Shown in pieces: positions 8,942 to 59,337 of a DNA stretch of 59,337 nucleotides (position 1 is the first letter of the stretch; each line of letters starts with the position of its first letter). The translations under genes and the position numbers were made by a program. The notes beneath the pieces are model-generated. The model ran no database searches. It worked only from the letters and a program-made list of their open reading frames with translations, and was not told the DNA's origin. Origin of the DNA: a virus; the IMG/VR virus record IMGVR_UViG_3300045988_133192. The stretch is one strand, 5' to 3'.

Positions 8942-8953
8942 AGGAGAATCCGT

Positions 8954-10496: not shown

Positions 10497-10607
10497 CCCC
10501 CATCGGGCAGCTTTTGGGCATAAAAAGAGCCGCCCACCCTCAAACCTCAAATGGCCTAAGAATGAACGGCGCCGGACAACCGTTATTATACCATTTGAGC
10601 GGAGGAA

Positions 10608-11078: not shown

Positions 11079-11105
11079 ATGAGTGTAAATGAGTATAAAT
11101 GAGGT
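11076..11105 (+). repeat. 3 x 10-bp tandem repeat TAAATGAG(T/G)(G/A/T)
   Basis: taaatgagtg taaatgagta taaatgaggt, starting in the stop codon of the sigma-like gene. Confidence 0.8.
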
Positions 11106-11320
11106 AGATTGCGCATACAAATCTGTGATACTATCACAATGCGAAAAGCGAAAGGGAGCTTCCGACACTCCCAGACGCCGGACGCAAAGAGAATAGCGCA
11201 CTCATTCTTTTCTCTGCCCTACCACCTGACCGCAGCAGCGGCCGGGTGGTTCTTTTTTGCGCAGAAATCGGGATGGGCCAGCGCAAAAGGGCAAAATAAA
11301 CCTGAAAGGAGGAAAGAACT

Positions 11321-12536: not shown

Positions 12537-12554
12537 ACCAAAAGGAGAAGCACA

Positions 12555-13265: not shown

Positions 13266-13842
13266 CCCGGCAGACTACAACCCCCGCAAAGACTTACAGC
13301 CGGACGACCCCACATACCTGAAGATCAAACAAAGCCTTGAAACCTTTGGCATGGTCGAGCCTATCATCTGGAACGAAAGAACCGGGCACATCGTGGGCGG
13401 CCACCAGAGAATCAAGGCCCTGCGCGATATGGGCGAAGCCGAAACCGACGTTGTCGTCATAAACGAACCCCTCAAAGAGGAAAAGAAGCTGAACGTCATC
13501 CTCAACCGCGCCAAAGGCCGCTGGGATAATGAAAAGCTGGCCCCCTTGATGCAGGAGCTTTCCGAACGCGGCGACGTTTCCCTCACAGGCTTTGAGGACT
13601 ACGAGCTGCAAGGACTGATTGACCAGTACCAAAACCGTCTGGCCGACATCCTCGATTATTCACCGCCTGAACCGCAGCCGGACAACGAGCAGGAAGAAGA
13701 AACCCCTGCCGACGCCACATTCTCAATGATCTTTTCCATCCCGGCACAGTACAAGGACGCCGTGGACGCATACCTCGAACAGGACGACGCCCGCGAAACC
13801 CTCGCCGCTGCCATCATGGAAAAAATCAGAGGGGAGGACTAA
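13225..13842 (+). CDS. stand-alone ParB N-terminal (ParB/Srx) domain protein, paralogue 1
   Basis: NPADYNPRKDL ... VGGHQRIKAL core with an acidic C-terminal half. Overlaps the yhhQ 3' end by 41 nt. Confidence 0.8.
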   Translation: MAMNIRRMQLADLNPADYNPRKDLQPDDPTYLKIKQSLETFGMVEPIIWNERTGHIVGGHQRIKALRDMGEAETDVVVINEPLKEEKKLNVILNRAKGRWDNEKLAPLMQELSERGDVSLTGFEDYELQGLIDQYQNRLADILDYSPPEPQPDNEQEEETPADATFSMIFSIPAQYKDAVDAYLEQDDARETLAAAIMEKIRGED

Positions 13843-33281: not shown

Positions 33282-33734
33282 ATGAACGAAACCAGCCTGA
33301 AGCAGCTCTTTCAGGGCCTTATCCCGGTCGGCTCCACCATCTTGCAGGGTACAGTCACCAAAGACGACCCCCTCGAAATTACCGCCGCCAACGACAGCAA
33401 GCTCATTATCTCCGGCAATCAGCTTATCGTACCTTGGCACCTCACCGACTACACCACCCACGCGGACTATACGATGGGGGACAAGGGCGAACTGCGCGAC
33501 GAAACCTATACCAAAATGGACGGCGGCCACGTCCACACCGACAGCCGGGGCGGGCCGACCACTAACGTCAAGCACAAACACTATGTCGAAAAGCTGAACG
33601 CCTACAAAATGACCCTGAAAGTCTATAACCATCTGCAAAAGGACGATGTGGTCTATATGCTCTCGCTCAACAACGGCAAGGTCTATTACGTCCTTGACCG
33701 TGTCGCTGGGCAGGTAGCAGGAAAGGACATCTGA
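33282..33734 (+). CDS. XkdR-position baseplate protein (DUF2577-like)
   Basis: Synteny with PBSX-type tail modules. Confidence 0.55.
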   Translation: MNETSLKQLFQGLIPVGSTILQGTVTKDDPLEITAANDSKLIISGNQLIVPWHLTDYTTHADYTMGDKGELRDETYTKMDGGHVHTDSRGGPTTNVKHKHYVEKLNAYKMTLKVYNHLQKDDVVYMLSLNNGKVYYVLDRVAGQVAGKDI

Positions 33735-33735
33735 C

Positions 33736-34140
33736 ATGGCCGTTTATATCCCGATTGAAATTGCAGAGGTACAGGACGCGCAGGAAAAGCCGTCCAAAAC
33801 GTACCGCCTTGACCTTGACGCGGGGAGAATCGTCGGCTTTGTGGATAACATCGAAGCCGTGCAGCAGGCCATCCGAAAGGCCATCATAACCCCGCGTTTT
33901 AAGTGCCTGATCTATGATAACCAGTACGGCAGCGAAATTGAAGATGCTGTCATTGCAAAGGACGCCAGCCGCGAGTATGCCGAATCCGTCATCGAGGGGT
34001 TTGTCAAGGACGCGCTGGCCCCGGATAGCCGCATCCTCGAATGTCACGATTTTTCGGTCACGTTTGAGGACGACGAAGCACACATCGAATTTACTGCCGA
34101 CACCATCTTTGGCGAAATCGAAATCGAGGAGGTGATCTAA
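33736..34140 (+). CDS. gp25/W-like baseplate wedge protein (XkdS-like)
   Basis: Synteny; 134 aa. Confidence 0.6.
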   Translation: MAVYIPIEIAEVQDAQEKPSKTYRLDLDAGRIVGFVDNIEAVQQAIRKAIITPRFKCLIYDNQYGSEIEDAVIAKDASREYAESVIEGFVKDALAPDSRILECHDFSVTFEDDEAHIEFTADTIFGEIEIEEVI

Positions 34141-34143
34141 AAA

Positions 34144-35259
34144 ATGTATGAGGACAGAACTTTTGAAAACCTCTTGCAGGAAGTCTTGGCCGACGCTGAA
34201 GCCGATGGAATCGACACCCGGCAAGGCTCCATCTTCTACGATTCCGTGTCCGGCACCTGTCTGAAAATTGCGAAGCTCTATACCGACATCGACGTGGCCC
34301 GCAGGCTGGTTTCCATCGCCACCGCCACCGGTGACGATCTGGACGACAAGGCCAGCGAGTACGGCATGACCCGCCACGCCGCGACCCCGGCAAAATACCG
34401 TTTTACCTTTGAGGGCACAGCCCCGGACACCGGGACGCGCTTCTACAACGACGGTCTGTATTTCGTCCTGCGGTATAACACGCTGGAGGGCGAATACTAC
34501 CTCGAAGCAGAAGTCCCCGGCGAATCTGGTAACGTCGTCTATGAGGGAACGGCAGCCATCCCGGTGAATGAGATCGACGGCCTGAAAAATGCAAGGTTTG
34601 GGGCCATCTACGAAAACGGCACTGACCGAGAGGACGACGAAAGCCTGCGCACCCGCGTACAGGAAAAAATAGCTGGCCCCGCCGAGAACGGCAACAAGCA
34701 GCACTACAAAACGTGGTGCGAAAGCATCGACGGAATCGGCCATGCCCGCATCTATCCACTGTGGAACGGCCCGAACACCGTCAAAGCTGTGCTGATTGAT
34801 TCTGCCGGCCGCGCCTGTTCCGGCTCCAAAATTGCCGAGGTTCAGCAGTACATCGACCCGGCCACCAAAGGTTACACCGCCACCGTGGACGGTTACACCT
34901 ACACCGTCGGTGATGGGCTGGGCGAGGGCGTCGCCAACCTTGGCGCACACTTTACCGCCGTTTCTGCCCGCGAAATCAAAATCGACGTCGCCTTTGAAGC
35001 TGACCTTGCTAGCGGATTCACCCCGCAGGAAGTCCAGGAGCAGGCGAAAGAAGCGATTGACGCCTACCTCAAAGATACCGTGCTGACCACGGCAGCCGCC
35101 GAGGATGTCGTCATCCGCGCCGCCCGCATCGGTGCAATCATCATTGAGCTGGACAGCGTTGTGGACTACAAAAACCTCACGCTGAACGGCAGCACCGAAA
35201 ATATCAGGCCCGGAGCCGATTATATCCCTGTGGCCGGGGAGGTGACAGTCACCACATGA
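34144..35259 (+). CDS. baseplate J-like protein (XkdT-like)
   Basis: 371 aa; DTRQGSIFYD...GDDLD...GNV pattern typical of baseplate J. Confidence 0.8.
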   Translation: MYEDRTFENLLQEVLADAEADGIDTRQGSIFYDSVSGTCLKIAKLYTDIDVARRLVSIATATGDDLDDKASEYGMTRHAATPAKYRFTFEGTAPDTGTRFYNDGLYFVLRYNTLEGEYYLEAEVPGESGNVVYEGTAAIPVNEIDGLKNARFGAIYENGTDREDDESLRTRVQEKIAGPAENGNKQHYKTWCESIDGIGHARIYPLWNGPNTVKAVLIDSAGRACSGSKIAEVQQYIDPATKGYTATVDGYTYTVGDGLGEGVANLGAHFTAVSAREIKIDVAFEADLASGFTPQEVQEQAKEAIDAYLKDTVLTTAAAEDVVIRAARIGAIIIELDSVVDYKNLTLNGSTENIRPGADYIPVAGEVTVTT

Positions 35260-36203
35260 AGCGCAGCACCGACCGCAAGCAATTCTACCCCCGCGACTTT
35301 CCCGGCAACTATGACGAGCTGATCACCTACTACCCGCGCTACTACCGCAATGTGCGCGAGATGGTCGCCATCCTCAAAGCAGACGGAAAGCTACTGGATG
35401 GGGCACAGGGCGCCATTGAGCAGGTCTACAACAACGCCTTTATCGACAACATGGACGAGCCGACCATCCGCGAGATGGAAGTCTTTTTGAGCATCAACCT
35501 TGACAAGACCCGAACATTGGATGAACGTCGCCGCCTGATCAAATCTTTCTTTGCAGGCTTTGGCCGGGTATCGGCCACCCTGCTGAAAGAAATGATAAAC
35601 GCCTACACCAACGCCGACGTCGATGTGCTGTTCGAGCCGTTCGATGCAGCCGGGAACAATATGCTCTATATCAATTTTGAGCGCGGCGACGAACCCACGC
35701 TCTACATGAGCGATATTTTGGAGCTGCTGTCCCGCAAAATTCCCGCGCACATCATCTACACCCCATCCGTCACCTACAAGCGGCCTGTCGTCGTCAAGAG
35801 CAGGCGCACCCATTACGTTTTTGACTACGACCTGACAGGCACAAAGCCGGAAGTTGCCAGCAAAGGCGCGTACTACATTGCCGCCACCGTCACCGAGAAA
35901 GGCCACCTGCCTGTCATCATGGACTATAAGCAGGCCGCCGACGTGGACAACCCCACCGGCACAACCCCGGAGCCTGCATCCATCGCCGCCTACATCCAGC
36001 GGGCGACGGTCACACAGACCACCCATGACCCCCACGTTGCTGCATACCCTTACACGTCCGACGCCGATATGCCCACCGGGCAGACCCCGGAAACGGCCAT
36101 GCTGGGCAACAATGCAAGGCACGTCACAGGCGTGGGCTACACCGTCACCGAATGCGCCGAAAACTACCCGCTTTGCGGGCAGGGTTTCGCATCCCAAATT
36201 TAA
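35256..36203 (+). CDS. XkdU-like tail protein (DUF2313-like)
   Basis: ATGA overlap with the baseplate J gene; synteny. Confidence 0.6.
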   Translation: MKRSTDRKQFYPRDFPGNYDELITYYPRYYRNVREMVAILKADGKLLDGAQGAIEQVYNNAFIDNMDEPTIREMEVFLSINLDKTRTLDERRRLIKSFFAGFGRVSATLLKEMINAYTNADVDVLFEPFDAAGNNMLYINFERGDEPTLYMSDILELLSRKIPAHIIYTPSVTYKRPVVVKSRRTHYVFDYDLTGTKPEVASKGAYYIAATVTEKGHLPVIMDYKQAADVDNPTGTTPEPASIAAYIQRATVTQTTHDPHVAAYPYTSDADMPTGQTPETAMLGNNARHVTGVGYTVTECAENYPLCGQGFASQI

Positions 36204-36217
36204 GGAGGTAACACTAT

Positions 36218-36523
36218 ATGGCCGCTTTCTGGAATGAAAACTTCCTGAACAAAATCCGTAACAACTGGCTGCGGCGCGTCGCCAAAATCCAATATTACGC
36301 AGGCGGCGTCTGGTACGACGCTATGATCACCTCGAAAGAAATCGAGGGCAACACCCTGAAAGTCGTCTGCCAGACGCAGGACAGCGCGACGCTGACCATC
36401 ACGGCCGTTCGCATCATTGATTCGGACGGTGAAACCGCTGGGCAGACCAGCGAAAATATTGTCAAAAACTCCACGCAGGGCGTCATTTCTCTGTGGGAGT
36501 TTCCGCTCTACGAGCTGGTTTAA
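36218..36523 (+). CDS. hypothetical tail-fibre-module protein
   Basis: AAGGAGG RBS; position. Confidence 0.55.
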   Translation: MAAFWNENFLNKIRNNWLRRVAKIQYYAGGVWYDAMITSKEIEGNTLKVVCQTQDSATLTITAVRIIDSDGETAGQTSENIVKNSTQGVISLWEFPLYELV

Positions 36524-36543
36524 GCGAAAGGAGGTGAAAATCT

Positions 36544-37134
36544 ATGTTTAACTTTTTGCTCTGGAAAGACCATGCTGTCACCCCGTCCAACACCTACAAT
36601 CTGGTGAAAAACGATGATGGCACCTACACCCTCACCCCGGCGGGCAAAGTCATCCAGCAGGGCACGAACATGAGCGCGGCCAACTTCAACCGCCTTGAAG
36701 TCGGCCTGCATGATACCAACATCGCGGTCAAGATCGCACAGACCCTTATCCAGTGGCTTGGCCGCCGCACCACTAAGCTGGAAAGCCGCGCCGACGGTCA
36801 CGATACCAGCATTGCCAGCATCAACACGCTGAACGGCCAGCAGAACACCCGCCTGGCCGCGCTGGAAAAGGAAACCGCCGTTGAGGTCAAGGACGTCACC
36901 CTGACCGCTGGCAGCGACCCTTGGCCCTACTGCATCAAAGACACCGCCGTCGGCCTGTCCACCACCCGCAAGAATACCGCCTACGACGTGGACGTATACG
37001 TCAAGAGCTATTCCGGCGGCCGCCTTGGTGACATCACCGTCAAGGACAAGCTGGCGAACGGCTTTAAGCTCCACCATGATGGCAGCGCAAAAACCGTTGT
37101 CGTCACCATCAAAGTTTCGGGAGGTACGAAATAA
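36544..37134 (+). CDS. tail fibre protein (XkdV-position)
   Basis: N-terminal WKDHAVTPSNTYNL...GTNMSAANFNRLEVGL, typical of phage fibre N-termini. Confidence 0.6.
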   Translation: MFNFLLWKDHAVTPSNTYNLVKNDDGTYTLTPAGKVIQQGTNMSAANFNRLEVGLHDTNIAVKIAQTLIQWLGRRTTKLESRADGHDTSIASINTLNGQQNTRLAALEKETAVEVKDVTLTAGSDPWPYCIKDTAVGLSTTRKNTAYDVDVYVKSYSGGRLGDITVKDKLANGFKLHHDGSAKTVVVTIKVSGGTK

Positions 37135-37542
37135 ATGAAGATCGAAGAGCTGAACACTGGCCGCAAGATCGACTATGAGCTGCGCGGCACGAAGCTGGAC
37201 TTTGCCGACAGCACCCTTGTGATGAACCTCGCAAAGTACCAGAAAGAGGACACCGTCACCGCCACCATCACCGCCAACGCGCAGGGCAACTTGGCCGTCG
37301 ATGCAGACAACGGCCTGTACTACGTCGCACAGGTCGAAATCCCCGGCTATGAGTACGAGGACGTCGAGGTCGAAGGCCCTGCCGAAAACGACACCATGAC
37401 CGCCGCAGCAGCGGAGGACACCGATGTGCAGGCCGAGGACACCGCGCCCACTACCCACATCGAGCGCAAGGCAAAGCCGCTCGACACCGAAAAGGTCACG
37501 CTGCGCCTATGGAGCATCGAAGACTTTGAAAGCATCCTGTAA
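37135..37542 (+). CDS. hypothetical acidic tail-fibre-module protein
   Basis: Coupled (TAAATG) to the upstream gene. Confidence 0.55.
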   Translation: MKIEELNTGRKIDYELRGTKLDFADSTLVMNLAKYQKEDTVTATITANAQGNLAVDADNGLYYVAQVEIPGYEYEDVEVEGPAENDTMTAAAAEDTDVQAEDTAPTTHIERKAKPLDTEKVTLRLWSIEDFESIL

Positions 37543-37555
37543 GGAGGACTGAACT

Positions 37556-38662
37556 ATGGCAAACAATTTCGACGCCGCCGCTTTTGCGGTCAAATGCGCT
37601 TTTCCCGACAATCAGCTGATGATGGACGACACCGATCAGCCGTCCCTGCACGTCTGGATTCCGGCTTTCCGGCTCTGCGATGTGCTGTCCACTTCCAGCA
37701 CCGATATCCACCCAGCGTTCCGCGTCAACGGCAAGGAGATTTCCGGCTTCTGGCTGGGCAAGTACCAGAGCAAGGTCTATAATGGCCGCTCTTACAGCCT
37801 TCCCGCCGAAGATCCTGCTGTCAGCCGCACCTGTGATTCGTTCGCTGCATCCTGTGTGGCAAAGGGCAAGGGCTGGCACGAAGTCACCAATGCAGAATGG
37901 GCCGCCATTGCGCTCTGGTGCCACAAGCACGGCTGCGAACCCTACGGCAATAACAACTATGGCAAGGACAGCCGCGAGACCGAATATGTCGGCATCCCTG
38001 CACCCGGCGTACAGGACAGCGGCAAGACCGCCCGCATCCTGACCGGCACTGGCCCGGTTACTTACAGCCACAACGGCAAAATGTCCGGCGTGTTCGATAT
38101 GAACGGCAACGTCTGGGAATGGGTGTTGGGCTTGCGTCTGGTCAAGGGCGAATTGCAGGTCATCCTTGACAACAACTCCGCAGACAACACCGTGTCCTAT
38201 GCAGCATCCGGCAGCGCGTGGAAAGCAATCAAGGCCAGTGATGGCAGCCTGATCACCCCGGACGGCAACGGCATCACCGAGGGCAGCATCAAGCTGAACG
38301 TCGTGAGCGGCAAGGCGGTATGGGATACCACCATTGCAGACCAGAAGGACGAGGGCCGGGGCTGCTCGTTCAAGGACATCACCGCAGGTTCCGGCGTGAG
38401 CGACGCCGCAAAGCTGCTGCTGATGTCTCTGGCTCTCATGCCGGACACCGCTCTGACCGGCGACGGCATCGATGCCACCTACGGTGGCGATTACTTCTAC
38501 TTCAACAACGGCGCAGAGGAGCGGTGCCCGCTCCGGGGCGGCTCCTGGTTCTACGGCGGCAACGCTGGCGTGTTCTATTTGAACCTCTCCTATCCGCGTT
38601 CGGGCTCGTACTGGTTCATCGGGGGCCGTTGCGCTTTTGTTGAGCTGCCCGCTGAAGCCTGA
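37556..38662 (+). CDS. DGR target protein, FGE-sulfatase/C-type-lectin-fold receptor-binding candidate
   Basis: GWHEVTNAEWAAIALW, GNVWEWV, and C-terminal GGSWFYGGNAGVFYLNLSYPRSGSYWFIGGRCAF, which is encoded by the VR. Confidence 0.9.
   Translation: MANNFDAAAFAVKCAFPDNQLMMDDTDQPSLHVWIPAFRLCDVLSTSSTDIHPAFRVNGKEISGFWLGKYQSKVYNGRSYSLPAEDPAVSRTCDSFAASCVAKGKGWHEVTNAEWAAIALWCHKHGCEPYGNNNYGKDSRETEYVGIPAPGVQDSGKTARILTGTGPVTYSHNGKMSGVFDMNGNVWEWVLGLRLVKGELQVILDNNSADNTVSYAASGSAWKAIKASDGSLITPDGNGITEGSIKLNVVSGKAVWDTTIADQKDEGRGCSFKDITAGSGVSDAAKLLLMSLALMPDTALTGDGIDATYGGDYFYFNNGAEERCPLRGGSWFYGGNAGVFYLNLSYPRSGSYWFIGGRCAFVELPAEA
38521..38638 (+). repeat. DGR variable repeat (VR)
   Basis: Gap-free alignment to TR at offset 696. 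14 mismatches within 38522-38637, all opposite TR adenines. Confidence 0.9.
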
Positions 38663-38671
38663 TAAGCTGAC

Positions 38672-38693
38672 GGCCTGCGCGGGAGCGCGGGCC
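38672..38693 (+). promoter_or_regulatory. GC-rich hairpin with GGGA tetraloop just 3' of VR
   Basis: ggcctgcgc-ggga-gcgcgggcc (9-bp stem including one G-T pair), 34 nt after the end of VR homology. Confidence 0.6.
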
Positions 38694-38749
38694 AAAAGCA
38701 AGAACCCATAAAGGCGCGGTGGGCCAGCGGGCCGCCGCGCTGAACCATA

Positions 38750-39178
38750 TTGGAGGTGTTGACTGTGCCGAATGAAACCGAAGTGCCGCCCCAGCAGGGG
38801 CAACCCGAAGAGGGCGGCCAACCTTATGAGCCGTTCCATCTGCGGGAGCGAATCGAGGAAATGATCTTATATGCTTGGGAGCCTGTCACGCAATTCCCGC
38901 GAAAAGACCGGGCATTGTCCGACAAGCTCAAAGAAATTATGACCGACCTCTATGAACTCTCTATCCAGATTGACAACAGGCACATGAGGAAAACGACCGC
39001 CAATAATCTGGACGACAAGCTCGACGTACTGCGTGGCTTTGTGCGGCTGGCGGCGAACAAAAAGTTACACGGGGGCAAATACCCGCCACCGCTCAATATG
39101 CACCAGTATGAAGTCTGGGCGAGATACAACGATGAAATCGGCAGGATTTTAGGCGGCTATCTAAAGACGCTGAAATGA
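38750..39178 (+). CDS. avd: Avd-like four-helix-bundle accessory variability determinant
   Basis: QFPRKDRALSDKLKEIMTDLYELSIQI...LDVLRGFVRLA pattern; located between VR and TR. The true start may be the GTG at 38765 (8 nt after GGAGG). Confidence 0.8.
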   Translation: MEVLTVPNETEVPPQQGQPEEGGQPYEPFHLRERIEEMILYAWEPVTQFPRKDRALSDKLKEIMTDLYELSIQIDNRHMRKTTANNLDDKLDVLRGFVRLAANKKLHGGKYPPPLNMHQYEVWARYNDEIGRILGGYLKTLK

Positions 39179-39216
39179 CCTGCCGTTTTTCATACATGGG
39201 GATAGGCTGTATTTCT

Positions 39217-39334
39217 ACGGTGCCCGCTCCGGGGCGGCAACTGGAACAACGGCGGCAACGCTGGCGTGTTCAATTTGAACCTCAACAATCCGCGTTCGAA
39301 CTCGAACTGGAACATCGGGGGCCGTTGCGCTTTA
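39217..39334 (+). repeat. DGR template repeat (TR)
   Basis: Rich in AAC/AAT codons (23 adenines in 39218-39333). Non-coding context between avd and the RT gene. Confidence 0.9.
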
Positions 39335-39509
39335 CACCTGCAACACACATTATGTGCGGTGACACCACATCGGACAGGAGGGTCACAATCTACGGGCTGT
39401 GATCGGTATGTGGGTCTAAAGGAGCCTATTTACCATTCCGGGCAGACAACCCGGAAAAATTTTGTATTGCTGCGAAGGCGGGAACGTCACGCGCAGCGAC
39501 GGTGAAACA

Positions 39510-40676
39510 ATGGCACAAAATATAAATACGATCAATAATGCGTGGGCGGTTATGACGGAGTTTGAATACCTCATAAAAGCCGACCACAATGCCCGCAAAG
39601 GCAAGCGATACAGGCCCGAAGTTCTGGCTTTTACCGCGCAGCTTGAGCGGAATATTTTCGACATTCAAGCCCAAATGCTGGGCGGGACGTACATTCTTGG
39701 CCCATACCGCAAACTTTGGGTATATGTTCCGAAAAAGCGGCTTGTAATGGCCCTTGGCTACTCCGACCGCATTGTCCAGTGGAGCCTATACCAGTATTTG
39801 AACCCGATATATGACAAGCTCTTTATTGAGGATTCCTACGCTTGCAGAAAGGGTAAAGGCAGCCACCGGGCCGCCGCCCGCTTGCAATATTGGGTGCGGA
39901 AGGTCAGCCGCAAGCCGGATGGCTGGTATTATCTGAAGCTGGACATCTCAAAATTTTTCTACCGCGTCCACCATGAAAAGCTGCTGAACATCCTCTCGAA
40001 GCGCATCAAAGACCCGCAGCTGATGGCGTTTCTGGAAAAGGTCATAAACAGCAGGGCGCAGCCGTTCGGCCTGCCACGCGGCAAAGCCCCACAGGATACG
40101 CCGCCGGGGGACTGGCTCTATGACGTCGGTATGCCCATCGGCAACCTTACCAGCCAGCTTTTTGCGAACATATATCTCAACGAACTTGACCAGTTTGCAA
40201 AACACGTCTTGCGCATCCACTACTACATCCGCTATATGGACGATGTGATTATACTGGCAAAGGACAAAGAAACCCTGCACCGCTGGAAAGCCGAAATCGA
40301 AGCATTTTTGAACGATGAACTCCACCTCGATCTGAACGACAAAACGTGCATCCGACCTGTACGAGCTGGCATCGAATTTGTGGGCGTTCGCATCTACGCC
40401 ACCCACATGAAGTTGCGCAAGTCCACCACCAGCCGGCTGAAACGCGAAATCCGAAAGATCACTGAACTGTACGCCACCGGGCAAATGAGCAAAGCCGACT
40501 TTGACCGCCGCACGGCCAGTGTCAACGGCCTGCTGGAGCATACCGACAGCGCGAGCTTGCGCGGCCGCCTGAACCTGATCTATTTTGATACCATGCGGAA
40601 GAACGGAAAGCTCATACAGCCCGACGCCGGAATCTGGAAAGGGAACCATGAAGCAAGAGCACAAAAGCTGGCCTGA
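39510..40676 (+). CDS. DGR reverse transcriptase
   Basis: IRYMDDVIIL (YMDD) and the DGR-typical PIGNLTSQLFANIYLNELD motif. ATG at 39510 is internal to ORF 39462-40676. Confidence 0.95.
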   Translation: MAQNINTINNAWAVMTEFEYLIKADHNARKGKRYRPEVLAFTAQLERNIFDIQAQMLGGTYILGPYRKLWVYVPKKRLVMALGYSDRIVQWSLYQYLNPIYDKLFIEDSYACRKGKGSHRAAARLQYWVRKVSRKPDGWYYLKLDISKFFYRVHHEKLLNILSKRIKDPQLMAFLEKVINSRAQPFGLPRGKAPQDTPPGDWLYDVGMPIGNLTSQLFANIYLNELDQFAKHVLRIHYYIRYMDDVIILAKDKETLHRWKAEIEAFLNDELHLDLNDKTCIRPVRAGIEFVGVRIYATHMKLRKSTTSRLKREIRKITELYATGQMSKADFDRRTASVNGLLEHTDSASLRGRLNLIYFDTMRKNGKLIQPDAGIWKGNHEARAQKLA

Positions 40677-40833
40677 CCTGTGCGAAAGCCTGCTGGACAG
40701 GCTGGAAGCAGCAGGGGAGCCGACTACCAAAGAGCGGGCCGAATTTGGCGTCCTGCTTGTGGGCTGCTGCATGAAAGACTGTGGCGCAGACCTGCGGCCC
40801 AAATCCGAACAGATGGGAGGTGAACTGAAATGA
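40648..40833 (+). CDS. small hypothetical protein (61 aa)
   Basis: ATG at 40648 overlaps the RT 3' end; its stop overlaps the next start (ATGA). Confidence 0.4.
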   Translation: MKQEHKSWPDLCESLLDRLEAAGEPTTKERAEFGVLLVGCCMKDCGADLRPKSEQMGGELK

Positions 40834-41288
40834 GCCTGAAAGCCATCTGGGAAGCGTGGGGGCCTGTCATGGTCACGCCTGCCGTCATCGTCCTGCTGTC
40901 CCTTGTCGAGATTGCGCCTATCAAAATCAACCCTTGGTCGGCCATTATGAAATTTTTGGGCAGCCGCCTGAACTCCGATGTAACGGCCCGCCTTGACACG
41001 ATGCAGCAGTGCCAGACCGAAACGCGGCAAAGGTTGGACGAGCATATCGAAAAGGACGACGCCCAAACCGCCAGCCTTTGGCGAACCCAAATCCTGCGGT
41101 TTAATGATGAGCTGCTGCACGACCGGCGGCACACCAAAGAACACTTTGATGAAATCCTTGGCACCATCAAGGACTACGAAACTTACTGCCATACGCACGA
41201 TGACTACCCCAACGGCAAGTGCGTCCACGCCATCGCCAACATCAACCGCGTGTACGACGAGCTGCTGGAAAGCCATGACTTTTTATGA
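40830..41288 (+). CDS. N-terminally membrane-anchored coiled-coil protein (lysis-associated?)
   Basis: TM segment VMVTPAVIVLLSLVEIAPI followed by a helical domain; precedes the endolysin gene. Confidence 0.55.
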   Translation: MSLKAIWEAWGPVMVTPAVIVLLSLVEIAPIKINPWSAIMKFLGSRLNSDVTARLDTMQQCQTETRQRLDEHIEKDDAQTASLWRTQILRFNDELLHDRRHTKEHFDEILGTIKDYETYCHTHDDYPNGKCVHAIANINRVYDELLESHDFL

Positions 41289-41314
41289 CCCACAACGGAG
41301 AGGAATGATTTTGT

Positions 41315-41986
41315 ATGAGCATCGTAACCTTTAAGCGCGGCGACACCACCGCACTGACCAAAAATTTCACCCGTGACGAATTCCAGTGCCAGTGCAAAAA
41401 GTGCGAAGCCCAGATGATCGACACGGAGCTTGTAGAAAAGCTGCAACGCATCCGGGACGTGCTGGGCGTCCCGCTGAAGATCACGTCCGGGTATCGCTGC
41501 ATCACCCACAACGCAAGCAAGGCCGTACAGGGCAGCCGAACCAGTAAGCACCTGTATGGGTTTGCCGCAGACTGGCGCACCATCAACCGAACCGTGAACC
41601 CGGTCGCGCTTGGCATCATCGCGCAGGCGGTCGGCTTTGGCGGTATCGGCATCTACTGGCACCCCAAAGCGGCCATGTGCCACGCGGACACCCGCGCAGG
41701 CAAGGCAACGTGGCTTTGCACGTCGCCGAGGGTCTATCCCTCAACCACATACAACGCCTTTATTCTGCCCACCATCCGGCAGGGCAGCACCGGGGCGGCG
41801 AACAAGTCGGCAATCATCCTGCTGCAAAAGCTCCTGAAGCTCAAAGAGGACGGCAATTTTGGGCCTGCTACCACTCAGGCCCTTATTTATGCCCAGAAGC
41901 AGCACGGCTTGACCGCTGACGGTATTTGCGGCCCTGTGAGCTGGAAAGCTCTTTCGGGGGCCGACAAGTACCTGAAAAAGCTGTGA
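41315..41986 (+). CDS. endolysin: Peptidase_M15-like domain plus PG_binding_1 domain
   Basis: FTRDEFQCQCKKC, ITSGYRCITHNA, SKHLYGFAADW. C-terminal GNFGPATTQALIYAQKQHGLTADGICGPVSWKAL. Confidence 0.85.
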   Translation: MSIVTFKRGDTTALTKNFTRDEFQCQCKKCEAQMIDTELVEKLQRIRDVLGVPLKITSGYRCITHNASKAVQGSRTSKHLYGFAADWRTINRTVNPVALGIIAQAVGFGGIGIYWHPKAAMCHADTRAGKATWLCTSPRVYPSTTYNAFILPTIRQGSTGAANKSAIILLQKLLKLKEDGNFGPATTQALIYAQKQHGLTADGICGPVSWKALSGADKYLKKL

Positions 41987-41996
41987 GGTGACGCCA

Positions 41997-42293
41997 ATGC
42001 AGGAAGTTCACATCAACGTCAACCCCACCACACGCCACCAGCGCAAGAGAAAGGGCGCACAGCGCGGTTTTATGGATAAAGCCGTAATCTATTGCCTTTT
42101 CATGTGTACCGTGCTGGACGCCGCGATTCTGACCCTCTACTGGCACAGCGTCACGGCCCCGGACAGTCTGGCTACTGCTGCAATGGCCGCCCCTTGGATG
42201 GTCGAATTTGGAGCAATGGCAACCATCAAGAAGCACAAGATAACAACCCCGGCCGACGACAGCCAGCCGGACGATGAAAACAAAGGAGAATAA
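41997..42293 (+). CDS. putative holin (two hydrophobic segments)
   Basis: AVIYCLFMCTVLDAAILTLYW and LATAAMAAPWMVEFGAMATI, with a charged C-terminus. ATG 6 nt after GAGGTG. Confidence 0.5.
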   Translation: MQEVHINVNPTTRHQRKRKGAQRGFMDKAVIYCLFMCTVLDAAILTLYWHSVTAPDSLATAAMAAPWMVEFGAMATIKKHKITTPADDSQPDDENKGE

Positions 42294-42295
42294 TC

Positions 42296-42676
42296 ATGGA
42301 CGAATTTCTGAAAGTCGCTATTACCGCCTGCATCCCTGCCTTTACCGTCATTTTCGGCTGGGGCGTCAACAAGGCCGCCAGCATCGCCAACAGCTATGTG
42401 CATAACCAGTTTGTGCAGCATTGCATCCAGAACGCCGCCAACGCGGTTCTTAACGCCGTGTCCGACGTCAACCAGACCTATGTTGACAGCCTGAAAGAAT
42501 CCGACAAGTTCGACGAGGAAGCCCAGAAGCGGGCCTTTGCCGACGCTCTGGCGACCGCGAAGAAGTCCCTCACCACCGAAACGATCTTGTTCATCAAAGA
42601 AACCTTTGGCGACGTGGACGCCTACCTGACCCCCATGATCGAAGCACAGGTGCGCAGCCAGAAGACCTATATGTGA
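42296..42676 (+). CDS. Holin_LLH-like (phage holin family 6-like) protein
   Basis: N-terminal TM AITACIPAFTVIFGWGV followed by a long helical tail; last gene of the lysis cassette. Confidence 0.55.
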   Translation: MDEFLKVAITACIPAFTVIFGWGVNKAASIANSYVHNQFVQHCIQNAANAVLNAVSDVNQTYVDSLKESDKFDEEAQKRAFADALATAKKSLTTETILFIKETFGDVDAYLTPMIEAQVRSQKTYM

Positions 42677-42696
42677 TGTTTGCCTGACACCACGAA

Positions 42697-42735
42697 AACA
42701 TGACCATTTTCGGCACCTCACGAAAATGGTATGTT
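42697..42735. repeat. 16/15-nt inverted repeat with 8-nt spacer
   Basis: aacatgaccattttcg-gcacctca-cgaaaatggtatgtt, with no T-run after it. Confidence 0.7.
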
Positions 42736-42802
42736 CCCGACACAAATGCCGGAAACATCCCGCCTTAAACGCGCTTTTTGCAAAAAGTCAGCGTAAAATT
42801 AT

Positions 42803-42822
42803 CGCAAATCGCGCGATTTGCG
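42803..42822. repeat. 20-bp perfect palindrome CGCAAATCGCGCGATTTGCG
   Basis: Self-complementary by direct reading. A second hairpin, gcgcgt-attaa-acgcgc, lies at 42820-42836. Confidence 0.9.
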
Positions 42823-42848
42823 CGTATTAAACGCGCGGCGCGCGATTC

Positions 42849-42878
42849 CGTGCAATTATCGTGCAATCTCCGTGCAAT
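42849..42878 (+). repeat. 3 direct repeats of CGTGCAAT at 11-bp spacing, abutting a -35 box
   Basis: Copies at 42849, 42860 and 42871; the TTGACA box is at 42889. Confidence 0.85.
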
Positions 42879-42888
42879 TCCGGCCCGC

Positions 42889-42917
42889 TTGACACCTGGC
42901 CAAAATCCGGGTAAAAT
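42889..42917 (+). promoter_or_regulatory. strong sigma70-type promoter TTGACA-N17-TAAAAT
   Basis: ttgacacctggccaaaatccgggtaaaat. Confidence 0.7.
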
Positions 42918-42922
42918 AGGGC

Positions 42923-43085
42923 CACTTGAAAGGTTCCGACCTTTGTAGGGAGCGGCCCGCCCGGTCTGGGCGTTTCGCTCTTGATTTTTATTTGGCCGCT
43001 ATGGCAGCATAAAATCCCCTGATCTGACCGAAGCCCAACGCGCCGCGCCGGGTACATCGTAGGCAGACCGGGGGATTTTTTATTG
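42923..43085 (+). ncRNA. candidate ~160-nt structured non-coding RNA
   Basis: Promoter 42889-42917 and a U-run terminator (cccctgatctg...cagaccggggg-attttttatt). No plausible ORF. Internal hairpins at 42929-42944 and 42956-42972. Confidence 0.4.
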
Positions 43086-43153
43086 ACTACAATCTGAAGT
43101 CACTTGCAACTTAGCTTGAGAATCTTAAAACCAGCTTGAAATTTAGCTTGACA

Positions 43154-43206
43154 AAGGCCCATCTTTGAGCATTTTTTTTCGCTCTCTGATGGGCCTTTTT
43201 CTTTTG
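43154..43206 (+). terminator. hairpin plus T-run terminator
   Basis: aggcccatc...gatgggcct (9 bp) followed by ttttt cttttg. The junction resembles 71-90. Confidence 0.6.
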
Positions 43207-43227
43207 CGTATTTTATTATCACACCTG

Positions 43228-43256
43228 TTGACTTTTCAGCAAAAACGGAGGATAGT
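43228..43256 (+). promoter_or_regulatory. promoter cassette lacking the operator (TTGACT-N17-GATAGT)
   Basis: Same cacctgTTGACT context as the other cassettes, but the spacer tttcagcaaaaacggag has no CTCACA motif. Confidence 0.55.
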
Positions 43257-43304
43257 ATTCTTGTAAGGCAGAGATGAAATCTCTTACAGAAAGGAATGAG
43301 GTGA

Positions 43305-43421
43305 ATGGACTTGAACGTAAGCGAAGCACTTCTCCGGGCTATCTTGGAGCTGATCGAGAAGTGCGACACCCTCGAAGAGCTGCGCGAAAGCGTTAAGCGA
43401 ATCATGGGCGAGAGCAAATAA
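43305..43421 (+). CDS. 38-aa helical peptide (MDLNVSEALLRAILELIEKCDTLEELRESVKRIMGESK)
   Basis: Only ORF between promoter 43228 and terminators 43425-43510. AAGGA lies 9 nt upstream. Confidence 0.4.
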   Translation: MDLNVSEALLRAILELIEKCDTLEELRESVKRIMGESK

Positions 43422-43469
43422 AAAAGAGCGGCGCCACCCTAAGACAACCGCTCTTTGACGCCCCACGAT

Positions 43470-43510
43470 AAAGGCGGATCGGAAGCATTACTCCGACCGC
43501 CTTTATTTTA
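43470..43510 (+). terminator. Rho-independent terminator
   Basis: aaaggcgg(a)tcgg...ccga-ccgccttt followed by attttatt. Confidence 0.75.
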
Positions 43511-43599
43511 TTACATCCAGCTTTTGAAATCAAGATGCTTTTTCACATTTTGCACCGAGTTTTCCACACAAATGAGAGCGAAAAATATTATCTTGCCTG

Positions 43600-43628
43600 T
43601 TGACTTACTCTTATTTGTGAGCGATAAT
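43600..43628 (+). promoter_or_regulatory. early promoter cassette with operator (reverse orientation) in the spacer
   Basis: TTGACT-N17-GATAAT. ctcttatttgtgag at 43608-43621; an upstream operator-like cacacaaatgagag at 43566-43579. Confidence 0.7.
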
Positions 43629-43682
43629 ATAGACACAAGGGAAATACAAACACACATCAAAGAGCATTTGGAGGTATTTACC

Positions 43683-43955
43683 ATGACTAAGTTCACCGAC
43701 GGCAAGCAGATCGCAACCATCACCATGACCGACAACAACACCGGCTGTGACTACGAAAACGAGTTTTTCGAGGTCGGCGGCCTGAAGCTCAACGAAGAGC
43801 TGAACGCCTACGAGGTCGAGGATGTAACCTACCTGACCGACTACGCCCAGAGCTACGTTGACGGTACAAACCCCGACGTCGATTATACCGAAGACGAAAA
43901 CGGCAACGTCATGGACACTCACACCACGCTGACCTACACCATCGAAAGCATGTAA
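43683..43955 (+). CDS. highly acidic small protein (90 aa)
   Basis: ATG at 43683 after GGAGG. D/E/T/N-rich (DYENEFFEVGG...DVDYTEDENGNVMD). Confidence 0.6.
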   Translation: MTKFTDGKQIATITMTDNNTGCDYENEFFEVGGLKLNEELNAYEVEDVTYLTDYAQSYVDGTNPDVDYTEDENGNVMDTHTTLTYTIESM

Positions 43956-43969
43956 GGAGGGCCACAGCC

Positions 43970-44149
43970 ATGAGAGAAGCTAAAGAGATCGCCGCCGACA
44001 TCAACGCCGCTGATACTTGGGAGCCTGAACTTTGCGCAGAGCTGTGCGAAGCGGCCGGCATGACTGCCGAATGGGAAGCAGCTGACCCGGACGACTTTGA
44101 GCGTGTCCTGTTCGATGCAGCCGAAAAGCTGGGCGTCGAGATCATCTAA
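43970..44149 (+). CDS. highly acidic small protein (59 aa, MREAKEIAADINAADTWEPELCAELCEAAGMTAEWEAADPDDFERVLFDAAEKLGVEII)
   Basis: AGGAGG RBS at 43955-43960. Under the ORF-track threshold. Followed by terminator 44176-44220. Confidence 0.55.
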   Translation: MREAKEIAADINAADTWEPELCAELCEAAGMTAEWEAADPDDFERVLFDAAEKLGVEII

Positions 44150-44175
44150 CCAGCGGCACGACCCAGCTGCACGAC

Positions 44176-44220
44176 AAAGGCCCGGTGAACCGCGATCTGC
44201 GGCACCGGGCCTTTTCTCTT
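44176..44220. terminator. bidirectional terminator
   Basis: aaaggcccggtg...caccgggccttt (12 bp), flanked by an A-run and a T-run; lies between convergent genes. Confidence 0.8.
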
Positions 44221-44516
44221 TACTTTTTCAGCTTGACGGCCGTTCCCATAGAGTATGTATAGCTGGTTTTCATGCCGAAGCCGACGTTCTGGAAGCGAAC
44301 TCCGATTATGGCATCAGCCCCAACCTTTTCACCTGCGCGTGTCAGATCGGCCACGAGAGCGGCGTTCACATTTTCGCCGACGACGGAATAATCACCGTTC
44401 CGGCACTTTACCATTTCTTTCATGCTTGGCCCGTCCGCAGCGGTGGCGACCGTCACAAGGCCGATATATTCGGCAATCTCGACGCCCTGCAAAGTGTCCG
44501 TTGTTGTAATGAGCAT
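44220..44516 (-). CDS. YbjQ/UPF0145-family protein
   Basis: MLITTTDTLQGVEIAEYIGLV ... GADAIIGVRF ... GTAVKLKK is colinear with E. coli YbjQ hallmarks. Confidence 0.75.
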   Translation of the reverse strand: MLITTTDTLQGVEIAEYIGLVTVATAADGPSMKEMVKCRNGDYSVVGENVNAALVADLTRAGEKVGADAIIGVRFQNVGFGMKTSYTYSMGTAVKLKK

Positions 44517-44556
44517 GATATGTTCTCCTGTCTATGGCGGGCATTTCTGCCCTGTA

Positions 44557-44754
44557 TTATTCCGCGCCGTCGGCGCGATGCGACTTGATAAAATCGGCCA
44601 TAGCCTTTTTGATAACCGCATTGGGCGACGTTCCAGCGGCTTTGCAGGCAGCCTTGAACTCCGCTGCAAATTCCTTGCGAACCTTTGCCCCGACGATCAT
44701 CATGTTTTCCCTGTCCCATTTCGCGCTGGCTCTTTTCTGCGATTCACAAATCAC
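44557..44754 (-). CDS. ribbon-helix-helix (Arc/CopG-like) protein
   Basis: SQKRASAKWDRENMMIVGAKVRKEFAAEFKAACKAAGTSPNAVIKKAMADFIK. GTG at 44754 downstream of the minus-strand promoter. The start is uncertain (alternative Met at MMIVG). Confidence 0.55.
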   Translation of the reverse strand: MICESQKRASAKWDRENMMIVGAKVRKEFAAEFKAACKAAGTSPNAVIKKAMADFIKSHRADGAE

Positions 44755-44782
44755 GAAAAGCACCGCCTTTCTTTTATTTAAC

Positions 44783-44811
44783 AGTATAACGCGACGAAAG
44801 CCCATTTGCAA
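44783..44811 (-). promoter_or_regulatory. minus-strand promoter TTGCAA-N17-TATACT
   Basis: Read on the reverse complement: ttgcaaatgggctttcgtcgcgttatact. Confidence 0.55.
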
Positions 44812-45032
44812 CGTGGGAAATGTGTCGTTTTTCGTTGACATCGGACACAAAAACTGCCGAAACGCACCCGGAAACATTGACGTTTTACCTGTTGGAATCT
44901 CTGTTTAACAGTAGGACAATAAAGGCACAGCGAGGGAAGCACGACCGGAAGGCAAGGGGCGAAGTATGAGCCGGGAGCGCAGTAAGTCGTGAGCGCGTGC
45001 TAAGTCAGTAGCCCACTTCCCGCACTGTTTTT

Positions 45033-45079
45033 GGAAATCTGGGCAGCAGGGCCGACCGTCCAGAATTTCCAAATTTTTT
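45033..45079 (+). terminator. hairpin plus T-run
   Basis: ggaaatctgg...ccagaatttcc followed by aaatttttt. Confidence 0.55.
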
Positions 45080-45101
45080 GAAAATTATCTTCTCGCACCT
45101 G

Positions 45102-45130
45102 TTGACAAACTCACAGATGAGAGTGATAAT
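45102..45130 (+). promoter_or_regulatory. early promoter cassette with operator in the spacer
   Basis: TTGACA-N17-GATAAT; ctcacagatgagag at 45110-45123. Confidence 0.7.
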
Positions 45131-45176
45131 ACAATCACAAGATGATTTACAACTCACAGAAGAAAGGAAATCTGCA

Positions 45177-45635
45177 ATGCTGGACAAGAACGGAATCGAA
45201 ATCAAGACCGGGGACATCGTGAGAATCACCGGCGCATACTTCAAGACCGACAACGCGCTCTATTTCGTGGAGCACAGCGACGGAGACCCCGACTGGTGCG
45301 GCAAAGACCACTGCCTGCTGAAGATCAAGCGCAACGGCGAGTTGAGCAAGGCAAAGAACTCCACCTGCTTCTGGCCGATCATGGTCACGGTCAACGGCTA
45401 CGAGAAATACACCACCGCAAAGCTGTGGAACAAAGAACACGCACAGATCGAGATCGTCGGGGGCATCGACAAGACCCACATCGCCGAATATTTCCGCAGC
45501 CAGTCACAGCAGTGCAACAAGTGGATTGAGCGGTACTCTTGGGACTTTGGCGAGAATAGCCGCTCTGTCAATGACCAGAAGCAGTACAAGGCGTTTTATG
45601 ATTCCGTCGTGGCAAGATTGGAGGGTATGGCATGA
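45177..45635 (+). CDS. hypothetical protein (152 aa)
   Basis: ATG at 45177 after AAAGGAAA; first gene of the cassette. Confidence 0.6.
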   Translation: MLDKNGIEIKTGDIVRITGAYFKTDNALYFVEHSDGDPDWCGKDHCLLKIKRNGELSKAKNSTCFWPIMVTVNGYEKYTTAKLWNKEHAQIEIVGGIDKTHIAEYFRSQSQQCNKWIERYSWDFGENSRSVNDQKQYKAFYDSVVARLEGMA

Positions 45636-45862
45636 TCTACACCATCGAAAAGCGGCACGTTTTCGGCTGCTATGATGGCAGCTATATGCAGAGCCATTAT
45701 GAAGTCATCGCGCACACGCACAGGCTCCCGAATGGCTGCTTGGCATCCACCGGCGCACTGACTGTTCACACCTGCAAATACAAAAGGGAAGCGACGGCAT
45801 ACTGCAAAGCCCACGGCATCGAGCCGCAGCCGCCCTTTATTTCGCCCGAAGAACCCGCCTGA
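45632..45862 (+). CDS. hypothetical protein (76 aa)
   Basis: GGAGGG RBS; ATGA overlap with the upstream gene. Confidence 0.55.
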   Translation: MIYTIEKRHVFGCYDGSYMQSHYEVIAHTHRLPNGCLASTGALTVHTCKYKREATAYCKAHGIEPQPPFISPEEPA

Positions 45863-46065
45863 TGATGGCTGCATGGCAGCAGCCGAAACCACCCAGCAGC
45901 CAGCTGGGCAAGGTCGCGGGAGCCGCGACACAATGAGCGTGTCCGTTTTATGGTTCTGGGTATCGGGCGTCCTGCCCGTGTAAAAGACACGACCACCCGG
46001 AAAATGCTTGGTTAGGCACTTGGCGGCTCTGCGCTTTTTATTTCCTGCAAGAAAGGAGCATCCAC

Positions 46066-46317
46066 ATGACGAAGAAAATCTATATCCTGCAAGCTGGATT
46101 CCTGCCCATCGGCGAAACCGACGTGACAGGCTGGCGCACCTATTCGTTCCACACTGGCCAGGGAGCCTACGACAACGCCGTGGCCGCCTACCGCAGCGAG
46201 ATGAACCGCAACAAGAACCCGAACGTCAAGTATCGCATCGTCAGCGCACATGACACCACCCGCAAGGACACCTATGTCCCAGTGTTCGGCTTTAAGAGCG
46301 CAGCCCGCACCCTTTAA
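46066..46317 (+). CDS. hypothetical protein (83 aa)
   Basis: AAAGGAG RBS. Confidence 0.6.
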   Translation: MTKKIYILQAGFLPIGETDVTGWRTYSFHTGQGAYDNAVAAYRSEMNRNKNPNVKYRIVSAHDTTRKDTYVPVFGFKSAARTL

Positions 46318-46370
46318 CTTGCCGGTAACTTGCCAGCAGGCCCGAAATATCATAATAAGGCGGTAAAAGA

Positions 46371-46580
46371 TTGAACTATAAATACATCTGGGCGTGGGAA
46401 ATCCTCAAAGGAACGACCAGTGCGGACATCGTGCGCGGCATCGTTTCACTTGCCCGGGAAGAAAACGCCCCGGCCCGGGCCATCATGCGGCTGCATGATG
46501 GCCGCTGGCTGACCCTCGAAGACCTGTCAAACGAAGAGCTTGTGCAGCAAATTGAGGATGAAGCAAAAACAATGATGTAA
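46371..46580 (+). CDS. hypothetical protein (69 aa, TTG start)
   Basis: AAGGCGG 7 nt upstream. Confidence 0.45.
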   Translation: MNYKYIWAWEILKGTTSADIVRGIVSLAREENAPARAIMRLHDGRWLTLEDLSNEELVQQIEDEAKTMM

Positions 46581-46586
46581 CGTCAA

Positions 46587-46702
46587 ACCACCACAACCCG
46601 ATACCCTATCCATACACCTGTCAGAATCTGGTGCTGGTACTGGTGGTACTTAAAGGTTATATCAATTTAATCTAAGAAGGAGAACGTAAAGGTTACGATA
46701 AA
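46587..46702 (+). repeat. copy A of a ~100-bp dispersed direct repeat
   Basis: Core cctgtcagaatctggtgctggtactggtggtacttaaaggttatatcaatttaatctaagaaggagaacgtaaaggttacgataaa aligns to 49706-49787 with few substitutions and two short indels. Confidence 0.85.
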
Positions 46703-59282: not shown

Positions 59283-59337
59283 GATGCGATGTTGATAGAA
59301 TAACCCCCGCGAGTTACAAATGTAAATCAAACTCAGC
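59283..59337. repeat. Terminal direct repeat copy 2 (identical to 1-55)
   Basis: 55/55 identity with the window start. Confidence 0.95.

Follow-up and report, generated by a model that had tools for sequence, protein, structure and literature searches.

The stretch of DNA analysed here, the whole 59,337-nt virus record IMGVR_UViG_3300045988_133192 (the window, to which all positions refer), contains a cassette of five elements lined up on the plus strand. A target gene (37556-38662) includes a variable repeat (VR, 38522-38637) close to its 3' end and is followed by the gene for an accessory variability determinant, Avd (38765-39178), a template repeat (TR, 39218-39333) and a reverse transcriptase gene (RT, 39510-40676). 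By every feature that could be tested this is an unannotated diversity-generating retroelement (DGR). With high confidence we regard it as a complete DGR that diversifies a TaqVP-like target in the tail region of a gut phage; this phage has a contractile tail and is related to prophages of Faecalibacterium, Gemmiger and related Clostridia.

The repeat pair and the proteins of the cassette

A repeat finder returned a single long direct repeat in the region, the 116-nt segments 38522-38637 and 39218-39333, which are spaced by 696 nt, ungapped and 88% identical. Compared base by base, VR and TR differ at 14 positions, all of them TR adenines (14/23), and at none of the 93 positions where TR has C, G or T (hypergeometric P = 2.0e-12). 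The homology has sharp edges on both sides, and a 21-mer of the repeat core occurs only twice, in VR and TR, against a chance expectation of 0. All 23 TR adenines occupy the first or second position of a codon in the frame of the target, within 11 AAC/AAT codons and one ATC. Mutagenesis of adenines in these 12 codons cannot create a stop codon, and it sets a ceiling of 4^23 = 7e13 variants at the DNA level and some 3.5e13 at the protein level (15^11 x 4), over 12 positions. An earlier sequence-only reading of the window had described the gapless alignment at offset 696 with 14 mismatches, all at adenines, as well as the placement of these adenines in the first two codon positions; re-alignment reproduced both, with none of the 14 mismatches falling elsewhere. 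That reading had also taken VR to encode the C-terminal ~39 residues of the target. VR does encode residues 323-361, but seven further residues (VELPAEA) precede the stop. A second VR, as reported for the Lagaffe-type phages, was not found on scanning both strands with the 93 non-A positions of TR only, where the best other match reached 51/93. Two spurious open reading frames (ORFs) overlie TR, at 39175-39402 and 39266-39505.

The target gene starts behind a strong ribosome-binding site and encodes 368 aa. Its product matches TaqVP (PDB 5vf4) over residues 24-362 (E = 2e-52, 31% identity), the family phrog_2889 (2.8e-113) and, with its C-terminus, phrog_5302, a 'tail protein'. In a Foldseek search its AlphaFold (AF2) model, built from 48 homologues (pTM 0.84), comes closest to 5vf4 (TM 0.73), followed by human FGE, Mtd and TvpA. 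The C-type lectin (CLec) character, proposed from the sequence alone together with FGE-sulfatase hallmarks, is seen both in sequence and in the predicted fold, an FGE-type CLec fold with VR on the C-terminal part; TaqVP itself lacks the FGE catalytic residues (PMC6328139). Sequence similarity to Mtd was not detected (BLASTP E = 1.7), Foldseek gives a TM of only 0.26 to 1yu0, and a comparison with the Mtd family that included its beta-prism and beta-sandwich trimerisation domains did not place the target there. The protein would function like Mtd yet belongs to the TaqVP-like family. NCBI lists an identical protein from an uncultured Caudoviricetes as a 'hypothetical protein' (DAE83283.1).

The ORF between VR and TR is best started at the GTG at 38765, which has GGAGG just upstream, and encodes an Avd of 137 aa. 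It scores 65.5 bits against Pfam bAvd (PF22296; cutoff 40), matches phrog_3206 ('Avd protein of DGR') and finds Bbp7 (PDB 4dwl) at E = 0.013. The 388-aa RT starts at the ATG at 39510, 176 nt past TR, and carries the motifs IGNLTSQ and YMDD. It matches Pfam RVT_1 (1.2e-21) and phrog_1423 (2.5e-128), and its closest solved relative is the Bordetella DGR RT (bRT, PDB 8ub7_A, from the solved RT-Avd-RNA complex) at 5.7e-44, compared with 1e-21 for group II intron RTs. Against Brt of phage BPP-1 it shows 33% identity (E = 2e-49) with YMDD aligned, and the motif PIGNLTSQLFAN is aligned to PIGSLTSQLFAN of bRT. Judged from these matches, the RT adjoining TR appears to be of the DGR clade. Both proteins agree with the sequence-only reading, which had noted an Avd-like ORF between the repeats and an RT with these two motifs after a spacer of ~175 nt.

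Variation in VR could also have been produced by ordinary diversifying selection or recombination among receptor-binding alleles, with the RT belonging to an unrelated group II intron or retron. The top NCBIfam model for the RT is in fact group_II_RT_mat, at 134 bits, and there is no DGR-RT model among the matches from that library. This score is, however, far under the model's cutoff of 300 bits, and the retron model retron_St85_RT fails as well (50 bits, cutoff 235), while the solved DGR RT scores double any group II intron RT. An Rfam scan of the window detected neither intron RNA nor msr/msd RNA. Furthermore, the variation is confined to the A positions of a separate non-coding template (P = 2e-12; 96.4% family-wide), and non-A changes in TR are copied to VR. 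We consider this explanation already effectively refuted, with a probability close to zero.

Template-directed variation among related phages

To follow the element through its relatives, homologous RTs were retrieved without any constraint on the VR sequence, and evidence of activity was taken from assemblies and protein clusters. The most informative relative is a near-twin in IMG/VR, IMGVR_UViG_3300045988_119465 (L001). Over 33510-41150 it differs from the window at 23 of 7525 positions outside VR (0.31%; 99.7% identical), whereas in VR 19 of 116 positions differ (16.4%), namely 18 of the 23 A-sites (78%) and one of the 93 non-A sites. This sole exception is a T>C change at 38566, and the same change is present in the TR of L001 at 39262 (38566+696), which indicates that TR passed information to VR after the split between the two genomes. 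More distant relatives repeat the pattern. L002 and L003 have identical TRs, and of the 17 differences between their VRs 16 fall at A-sites; the TRs of L002-L006 are marked by many non-A substitutions specific to a lineage, each reproduced in the cognate VR. Altogether, 120 of the 152 sequences with a homologous RT have an A-specific TR/VR pair, and over 116 distinct pairs 1448 of 1502 TR/VR mismatches (96.4%) lie at TR adenines.

Protein databases tell the same story at the level of the target. The 90%-identity cluster to which the window protein belongs has 1283 member sequences. Among sampled members of two such clusters each of the 12 A-templated codons takes 4-8 different residues, and scaffold columns take at most a few; the 15 members sampled per cluster (P0001 and P0003) differ mainly at these 12 codons. 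Polymorphism at the A-templated sites, which the sequence-only reading had proposed to look for, is thus what related contigs and protein clusters display, VR being hypervariable in relatives only at those positions. Five 90%-identity target clusters (P0001, P0006, P0025, P0071 and P0106) hold 1,283 to 13,829 distinct members each. Because sampled members differ mainly at the 12 A-templated codons, such sizes probably reflect VR hypervariation, and cluster size may serve as a flag for DGR targets in databases of this kind.

These comparisons of sequences point to ongoing mutagenic retrohoming, and the window DGR appears to have been active recently. The differences between TR and VR could instead be relics of past activity in a fossil DGR, whose parts are recognisable but no longer functional. 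The window genome is known from an assembly, and published Faecalibacterium prophage DGRs were sometimes silent when sequenced; in the Lagaffe prophage, for instance, no read-level DGR activity was seen (PMC11792537). On the other hand, 18 of 23 A-sites differ between genomes that are 99.7% identical outside VR, and a point change in TR has been copied to VR. No ORF is disrupted, compensatory changes maintain the RNA helices and the hairpin described below, and all 12 codons are hypervariable inside single 90%-identity clusters. A fossil therefore seems very improbable, and we retain the reading of a recently active element.

RNA structure and putative recognition elements

The relatives are numerous enough to resolve the whole DGR RNA by covariation. 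A consensus structure was derived with RNAalifold from an alignment of 24 relatives, and long-range helices were controlled by sliding the partner strand. The 176-nt spacer between TR and RT is conserved in blocks, and double changes preserve 24 of 34 pairs in the spacer alone and 36 of 56 in the full RNA. Two long-range duplexes stand out. The first joins 39198-39208 to 39423-39434, with 97.7% of cells paired and compensatory changes in 8 of 11 pairs; a slid partner gives 44-61%, and RNAalifold recovers the helix independently. The second joins the TR 3' end and its flank (39330-39340) to spacer positions 39411-39421, with 96.2% of cells paired (26-62% with a slid partner) and compensatory changes in 6 of 9 pairs. 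Its spacer strand, UGGGUCUAAAG, falls in invariant columns with an unchanging AAAG (39418-39421) and is a candidate primer strand. A priming duplex between TR and spacer through a conserved GCGG block had been considered and was dropped, as its registers were inconsistent and RNAalifold gave a different, well-supported helix.

The remaining helices are local. A stem-loop with a UACG (UNCG) tetraloop at 39381-39404 shows compensatory changes in most pairs, a hairpin UUCCGGG...CCCGGAA at 39436-39459 is followed by a run of adenosines, and a nested stem GCUGCG...CGCAGC at 39469-39497 (6+3 pairs, several compensatory) encloses GGCGGGAACGUC. From 5' to 3' the order is thus UACG stem-loop, primer-like strand, strand of the bracketing duplex, hairpin with adenosines, single-stranded stretch and nested stem-loop. 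The Bordetella ribonucleoprotein has, in order, an Avd-binding UNCG stem-loop, a primer strand, the 'cPRT Stop' duplex, a stem-loop with adenosines, the Thumb Ring and an RT-binding stem-loop, and 207 of 278 Avd-type DGRs are reported to conserve its elements (bioRxiv 10.1101/2023.10.23.563531). By analogy with this cryo-EM model, we infer that the UACG stem-loop may bind Avd, the first long-range duplex may act as cPRT Stop, the second as the template:primer duplex, and the nested stem may bind the RT. Comparisons within the family could put the published cis-priming model to the test. Rfam contains no family that covers the spacer or the hairpin downstream of VR, its sole match in the window being an unrelated RNA.

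A G/C-rich VR 3' end, TCGGGGGCCGTTGCGCTTT (38619-38637), begins right after the last A-templated site (38618), is identical in TR and is kept across relatives. It resembles the core of an initiation of mutagenic homing (IMH) element. VR and TR are identical through TCGGGGGCCGTTGCGCTTT and diverge totally beyond it, so whatever discriminates recipient from donor must lie downstream of VR, as Wu et al. anticipated for DGRs with such identical repeat ends (PMC5758913). At 38672-38693, 34 nt past VR, a GC-rich hairpin or cruciform with a 9-bp stem and a GGGA loop of the GRNA type follows. Together with the core GGGGGCCG, it agrees with the consensus established by experiment for target recognition in DGRs, which has a 7-10 bp GC stem, a 5'-GRNA loop and a distance of 4-34 bp from VR (PMC3240598). 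A GRNA hairpin recurs in 84 of 94 distinct relatives, offset by a median of 35 nt and with stems unrelated in sequence, compared with 5.9% of random 90-mers. Since the DNA fold of the region downstream of VR is no more stable than that of shuffled sequences (z = -0.17), the support for the hairpin comes from conservation and covariation, not from energy.

Between the VR end and this hairpin lie four phased CTG motifs (38645-38669), starting at 38645, 38652, 38659 and 38667 and hence spaced by 7, 7 and 8 nt. Relatives have on average 3.4 CTG triplets in this interval, controls 0.49, and the spacing is nearly always 7 or 8 nt. The phase is fixed with starts 36/35, 29/28, 22/21 and 14/13 nt ahead of the hairpin loop, and the window copies are exactly in phase. 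The consensus is A-CTG-A, 72% of copies are past the stop codon, and in a family-wide comparison the array was absent from the TR flank. Its conservation extends over ~84 distinct related DGR loci, which range from those of Faecalibacterium phages to that of Bacillus phage BalMu-1, and it is seen downstream of each VR in L002-L149 and in L152, L153, L154 and L155. Dulem virus 37 has four copies, BalMu-1 and FP_Lagaffe three each and Vibrio phage VHML two, which are weak. An explanation as TGA stops in three frames is unlikely, given that CTG is fixed while A follows in just 55% of copies.

Neither the target-recognition paper, nor a large DGR survey, nor full-text searching of an incompletely searchable literature yielded a description of such an array, which may be unreported. 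Tentatively, and at rather less than an even chance, we propose that it is an unrecognised cis element marking VR as recipient in a large clade of phage DGRs with identical IMH and IMH*. Each repeat might, for instance, be in contact with a single protomer of pentameric Avd or of another multimeric factor. The family could help to clarify how VR is told from TR when IMH equals IMH*, with the phased array as a testable candidate.

The elements can be assembled into a working model of diversification. A transcript of ~39198-39500, comprising the avd end, TR and spacer, would fold into the conserved structure outlined by the covarying helices. As in the Bordetella model, RT and pentameric Avd would bind this RNA, and a spacer adenosine within the invariant AAAG, on the strand that pairs with the TR 3' end, may serve as the cis primer of cDNA synthesis. 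RT would then copy TR faithfully save opposite adenines, where any base can be inserted, an outcome consistent with all TR/VR differences lying at A. The cDNA would replace VR at the 3' end of the target, a transfer visible in the copied TR changes, and might be guided there by the G/C-rich IMH core together with the CTG array and the GRNA hairpin, both of which TR lacks. The predicted result is a set of variants at 12 positions of the ligand-binding surface of a TaqVP-like C-type lectin.

Genome context and known relatives

The first 55 nt of the window (1-55) recur at 59283-59337, so it represents a complete genome of ~59.28 kb, either circularly assembled or terminally redundant. Plus-strand ORFs cover 92% of it, and all genes lie on one strand, in agreement with the AT skew. 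Long antisense ORFs that appeared under a greedy six-frame selection are artefacts of a GC content of 55-58%, as the skew and plus-strand calling show a unidirectional genome. The gene order starts with replication genes (RecT, DnaD-like and DnaC-like) and runs through terminase, portal, protease, capsid, sheath, tube and tape measure to the baseplate wedge, Baseplate_J and a Mu gp48-like gene. Three small ORFs come next, then the DGR cassette, another two small ORFs and the endolysin. The window is a complete myovirus-like, contractile-tailed gut phage of the Faecalibacterium type, with its DGR between baseplate and lysis genes. Genomes with homologous RTs include those of Faecalibacterium intestinale, of which strain CLA-AA-H281 (L081) carries a related prophage, of Gemmiger and of other Clostridia.

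The sequence-only reading had placed the target after baseplate and fibre genes. Its baseplate part stands, since Baseplate_J and the Mu gp48-like gene upstream of the target are Pfam-verified; the 'fibre genes' and the 'receptor-binding tip' remain conclusions from gene order. The three small ORFs concerned (101, 196 and 135 aa; 36218-37542) invariably stand ahead of the target among phages of this group. They match only PHROG families without assigned function (phrog_7177, phrog_9010 and phrog_8734), while Pfam, NCBIfam and PDB returned nothing significant, and a fibre function for them is unsupported by these searches. They may form a shaft or adaptor that carries the variable protein. Going by gene order, we take the target to be most likely a receptor-binding protein of the distal tail or associated with the baseplate, with which the phage would vary its adsorption specificity, and the position that fibre genes take in P2-type and Mu-type phages makes a receptor-binding role likely.

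Alternatively, the DGR may be active while its target is no host-receptor-binding tail protein, and either binds mucin glycans or other cells or is not part of the virion at all. For this speaks that the function has been assigned by gene order next to ORFs without known function, that TaqVP, the closest solved relative, is a monomeric single-domain protein with no ligand known (PMC6328139), and that other Faecalibacterium phage DGR targets resemble Hoc-type decoration proteins (PMC11792537). However, the target directly follows Baseplate_J and the gpI/gp48-like gene, the place of fibre genes in P2-type and Mu-type phages; Lagaffe, Dulem virus 37 and BalMu-1 all preserve this four-gene block; the preceding gene of VHML carries the annotation putative tail fibre; and the target C-terminus matches the 'tail protein' family phrog_5302. 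We regard this alternative as possible but less likely, and keep to a probable receptor-binding protein of the tail region.

Several observations weigh against parts of the overall interpretation as an active DGR with a tail-borne target. The virion and receptor-binding role is read from gene order, and no function is known for any of the three ORFs immediately before the target gene. TaqVP is a monomer (PMC6328139), unlike the trimeric fibre-tip protein Mtd, to which the target has no sequence similarity. Pfam FGE-sulfatase scores 23.3 on the target, exactly its cutoff, and covers residues 111-190 only, and the NCBIfam equivalog DivGenRetAVD gives Avd 67 bits, under its cutoff of 80. The spacer elements were matched to the named Bordetella elements by order and shape, not by homology. 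Finally, activity of the window phage's element is deduced from assembly-to-assembly comparison.

Among described systems, the prototype BPP-1 (mtd-avd-TR-brt, at 1.7-4.6 kb of its genome) shares with the window the order of the cassette, an AAC-rich TR, Avd, the motifs IGxLTSQ and YMDD, a GC-rich IMH core and GRNA hairpin past VR, and spacer RNA elements in the same order, including the UNCG-capped stem-loop and two long-range duplexes. The target of the window has only the fold in common with Mtd, not the sequence (E = 1.7). Unlike in BPP-1, no difference separates VR from TR where their homology ends, so that the repeat itself does not tell IMH from IMH*; the hairpin is 34 nt off, whereas that of BPP-1 directly follows the 21-bp part of its IMH. 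This 21-bp part contains two CTGs 10 nt apart, in a place equivalent to the four-copy array at 7-8 nt. TaqVP, from a Thermus aquaticus prophage (PDB 5VF4; PMC6328139), is a full-length homologue of the target (31% identity, TM 0.73) and likewise consists of a single FGE-type CLec domain with a C-terminal VR in a prophage context with avd-TR-RT, yet it comes from another phylum and another phage. A C-terminal CLec VR is also typical of the CLec1-class FGE-sulfatase targets, for example TvpA, which form category 'b', the largest DGR target category (Wu et al. 2018, PMC5758913). Many category b targets are chromosomal and not phage-linked, whereas that of the window lies in a phage tail module.

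The gene order of the window recurs in FP_Lagaffe, Dulem virus 37 and Bacillus phage BalMu-1. FP_Lagaffe (MG711461; Cornuault 2018, PMC5883640; PMC11792537) shares the host group and the arrangement baseplate J, I-like gene, three small ORFs, ~365-aa target, Avd, TR, RT, small ORFs and endolysin. The targets are 50% identical over their full length, the RTs 48% and the three small ORFs, which are hypothetical proteins in Lagaffe, 30-36%. As detectable nucleotide identity is just 67% over 415 nt, the window represents a different genus-level phage. FP_Lagaffe reportedly has a second VR (PMC11792537), absent from the window. Like the window it carries phased (A)TCTG motifs ahead of a hairpin; this hairpin, GAGGGTGGC CCACCAA GCCACCCTC (6929-7010 of L152), has a 7-nt loop instead of the GRNA loop of nearly all relatives, and the ATCTG repeats are kept. 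No isolate phage close at the nucleotide level was found.

The database check called for by the sequence-only reading showed that much of this is already known: the DGR class, the Faecalibacterium host group and the target family with its crystal structure (PMC11792537, PMC5883640, PMC6328139), and also the hairpin and RNA elements. Faecalibacterium phages have been described as 'rich in DGRs', with cross-genome evidence of activity of the same kind (PMC11792537; DGRs also in PMC5883640). As a DGR, the element is one more well-formed example of a class catalogued in gut phages including those of Faecalibacterium, and changes little. Its value lies in an unusually clean natural record, in which near-identical genomes differ almost only at A-templated VR sites and a TR mutation has been copied to VR.

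Some further observations concern neighbouring sequences and relatives. In Dulem virus 37 (L154, PP511443) the DGR target (2381-3460) is annotated as 'CalU17 biosynthetic pathway protein' and a short coding sequence over TR (3986-4201) as 'enediyne biosynthetic pathway protein'; both look like mis-annotations from fold-level or translated-TR similarity. L001 is collinear with the window up to ~41150. The ungapped alignment collapses from ~41180, where ORF 40830-41288 is ending, and does not recover across the endolysin region. Over the ~41150-46673 compared, this suggests a mosaic recombination boundary just past the DGR, with a simple insertion or deletion as a possible alternative. The Rfam match in the window, a DUF3800-VIII RNA at 43013-43077 on the plus strand (59.9 bits, gathering cutoff 40.2), lies in a 506-nt gap between ORFs, and Pfam detects no DUF3800 protein among the neighbouring ORFs. 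Lastly, at 11622-13265 on the plus strand a queuine tRNA-ribosyltransferase-like gene (phrog_887) is followed by a gene for a Vut_1/YhhQ-type transporter (Pfam 3e-41), a pair that suggests 7-deazaguanine (queuosine-precursor) DNA modification by the phage.

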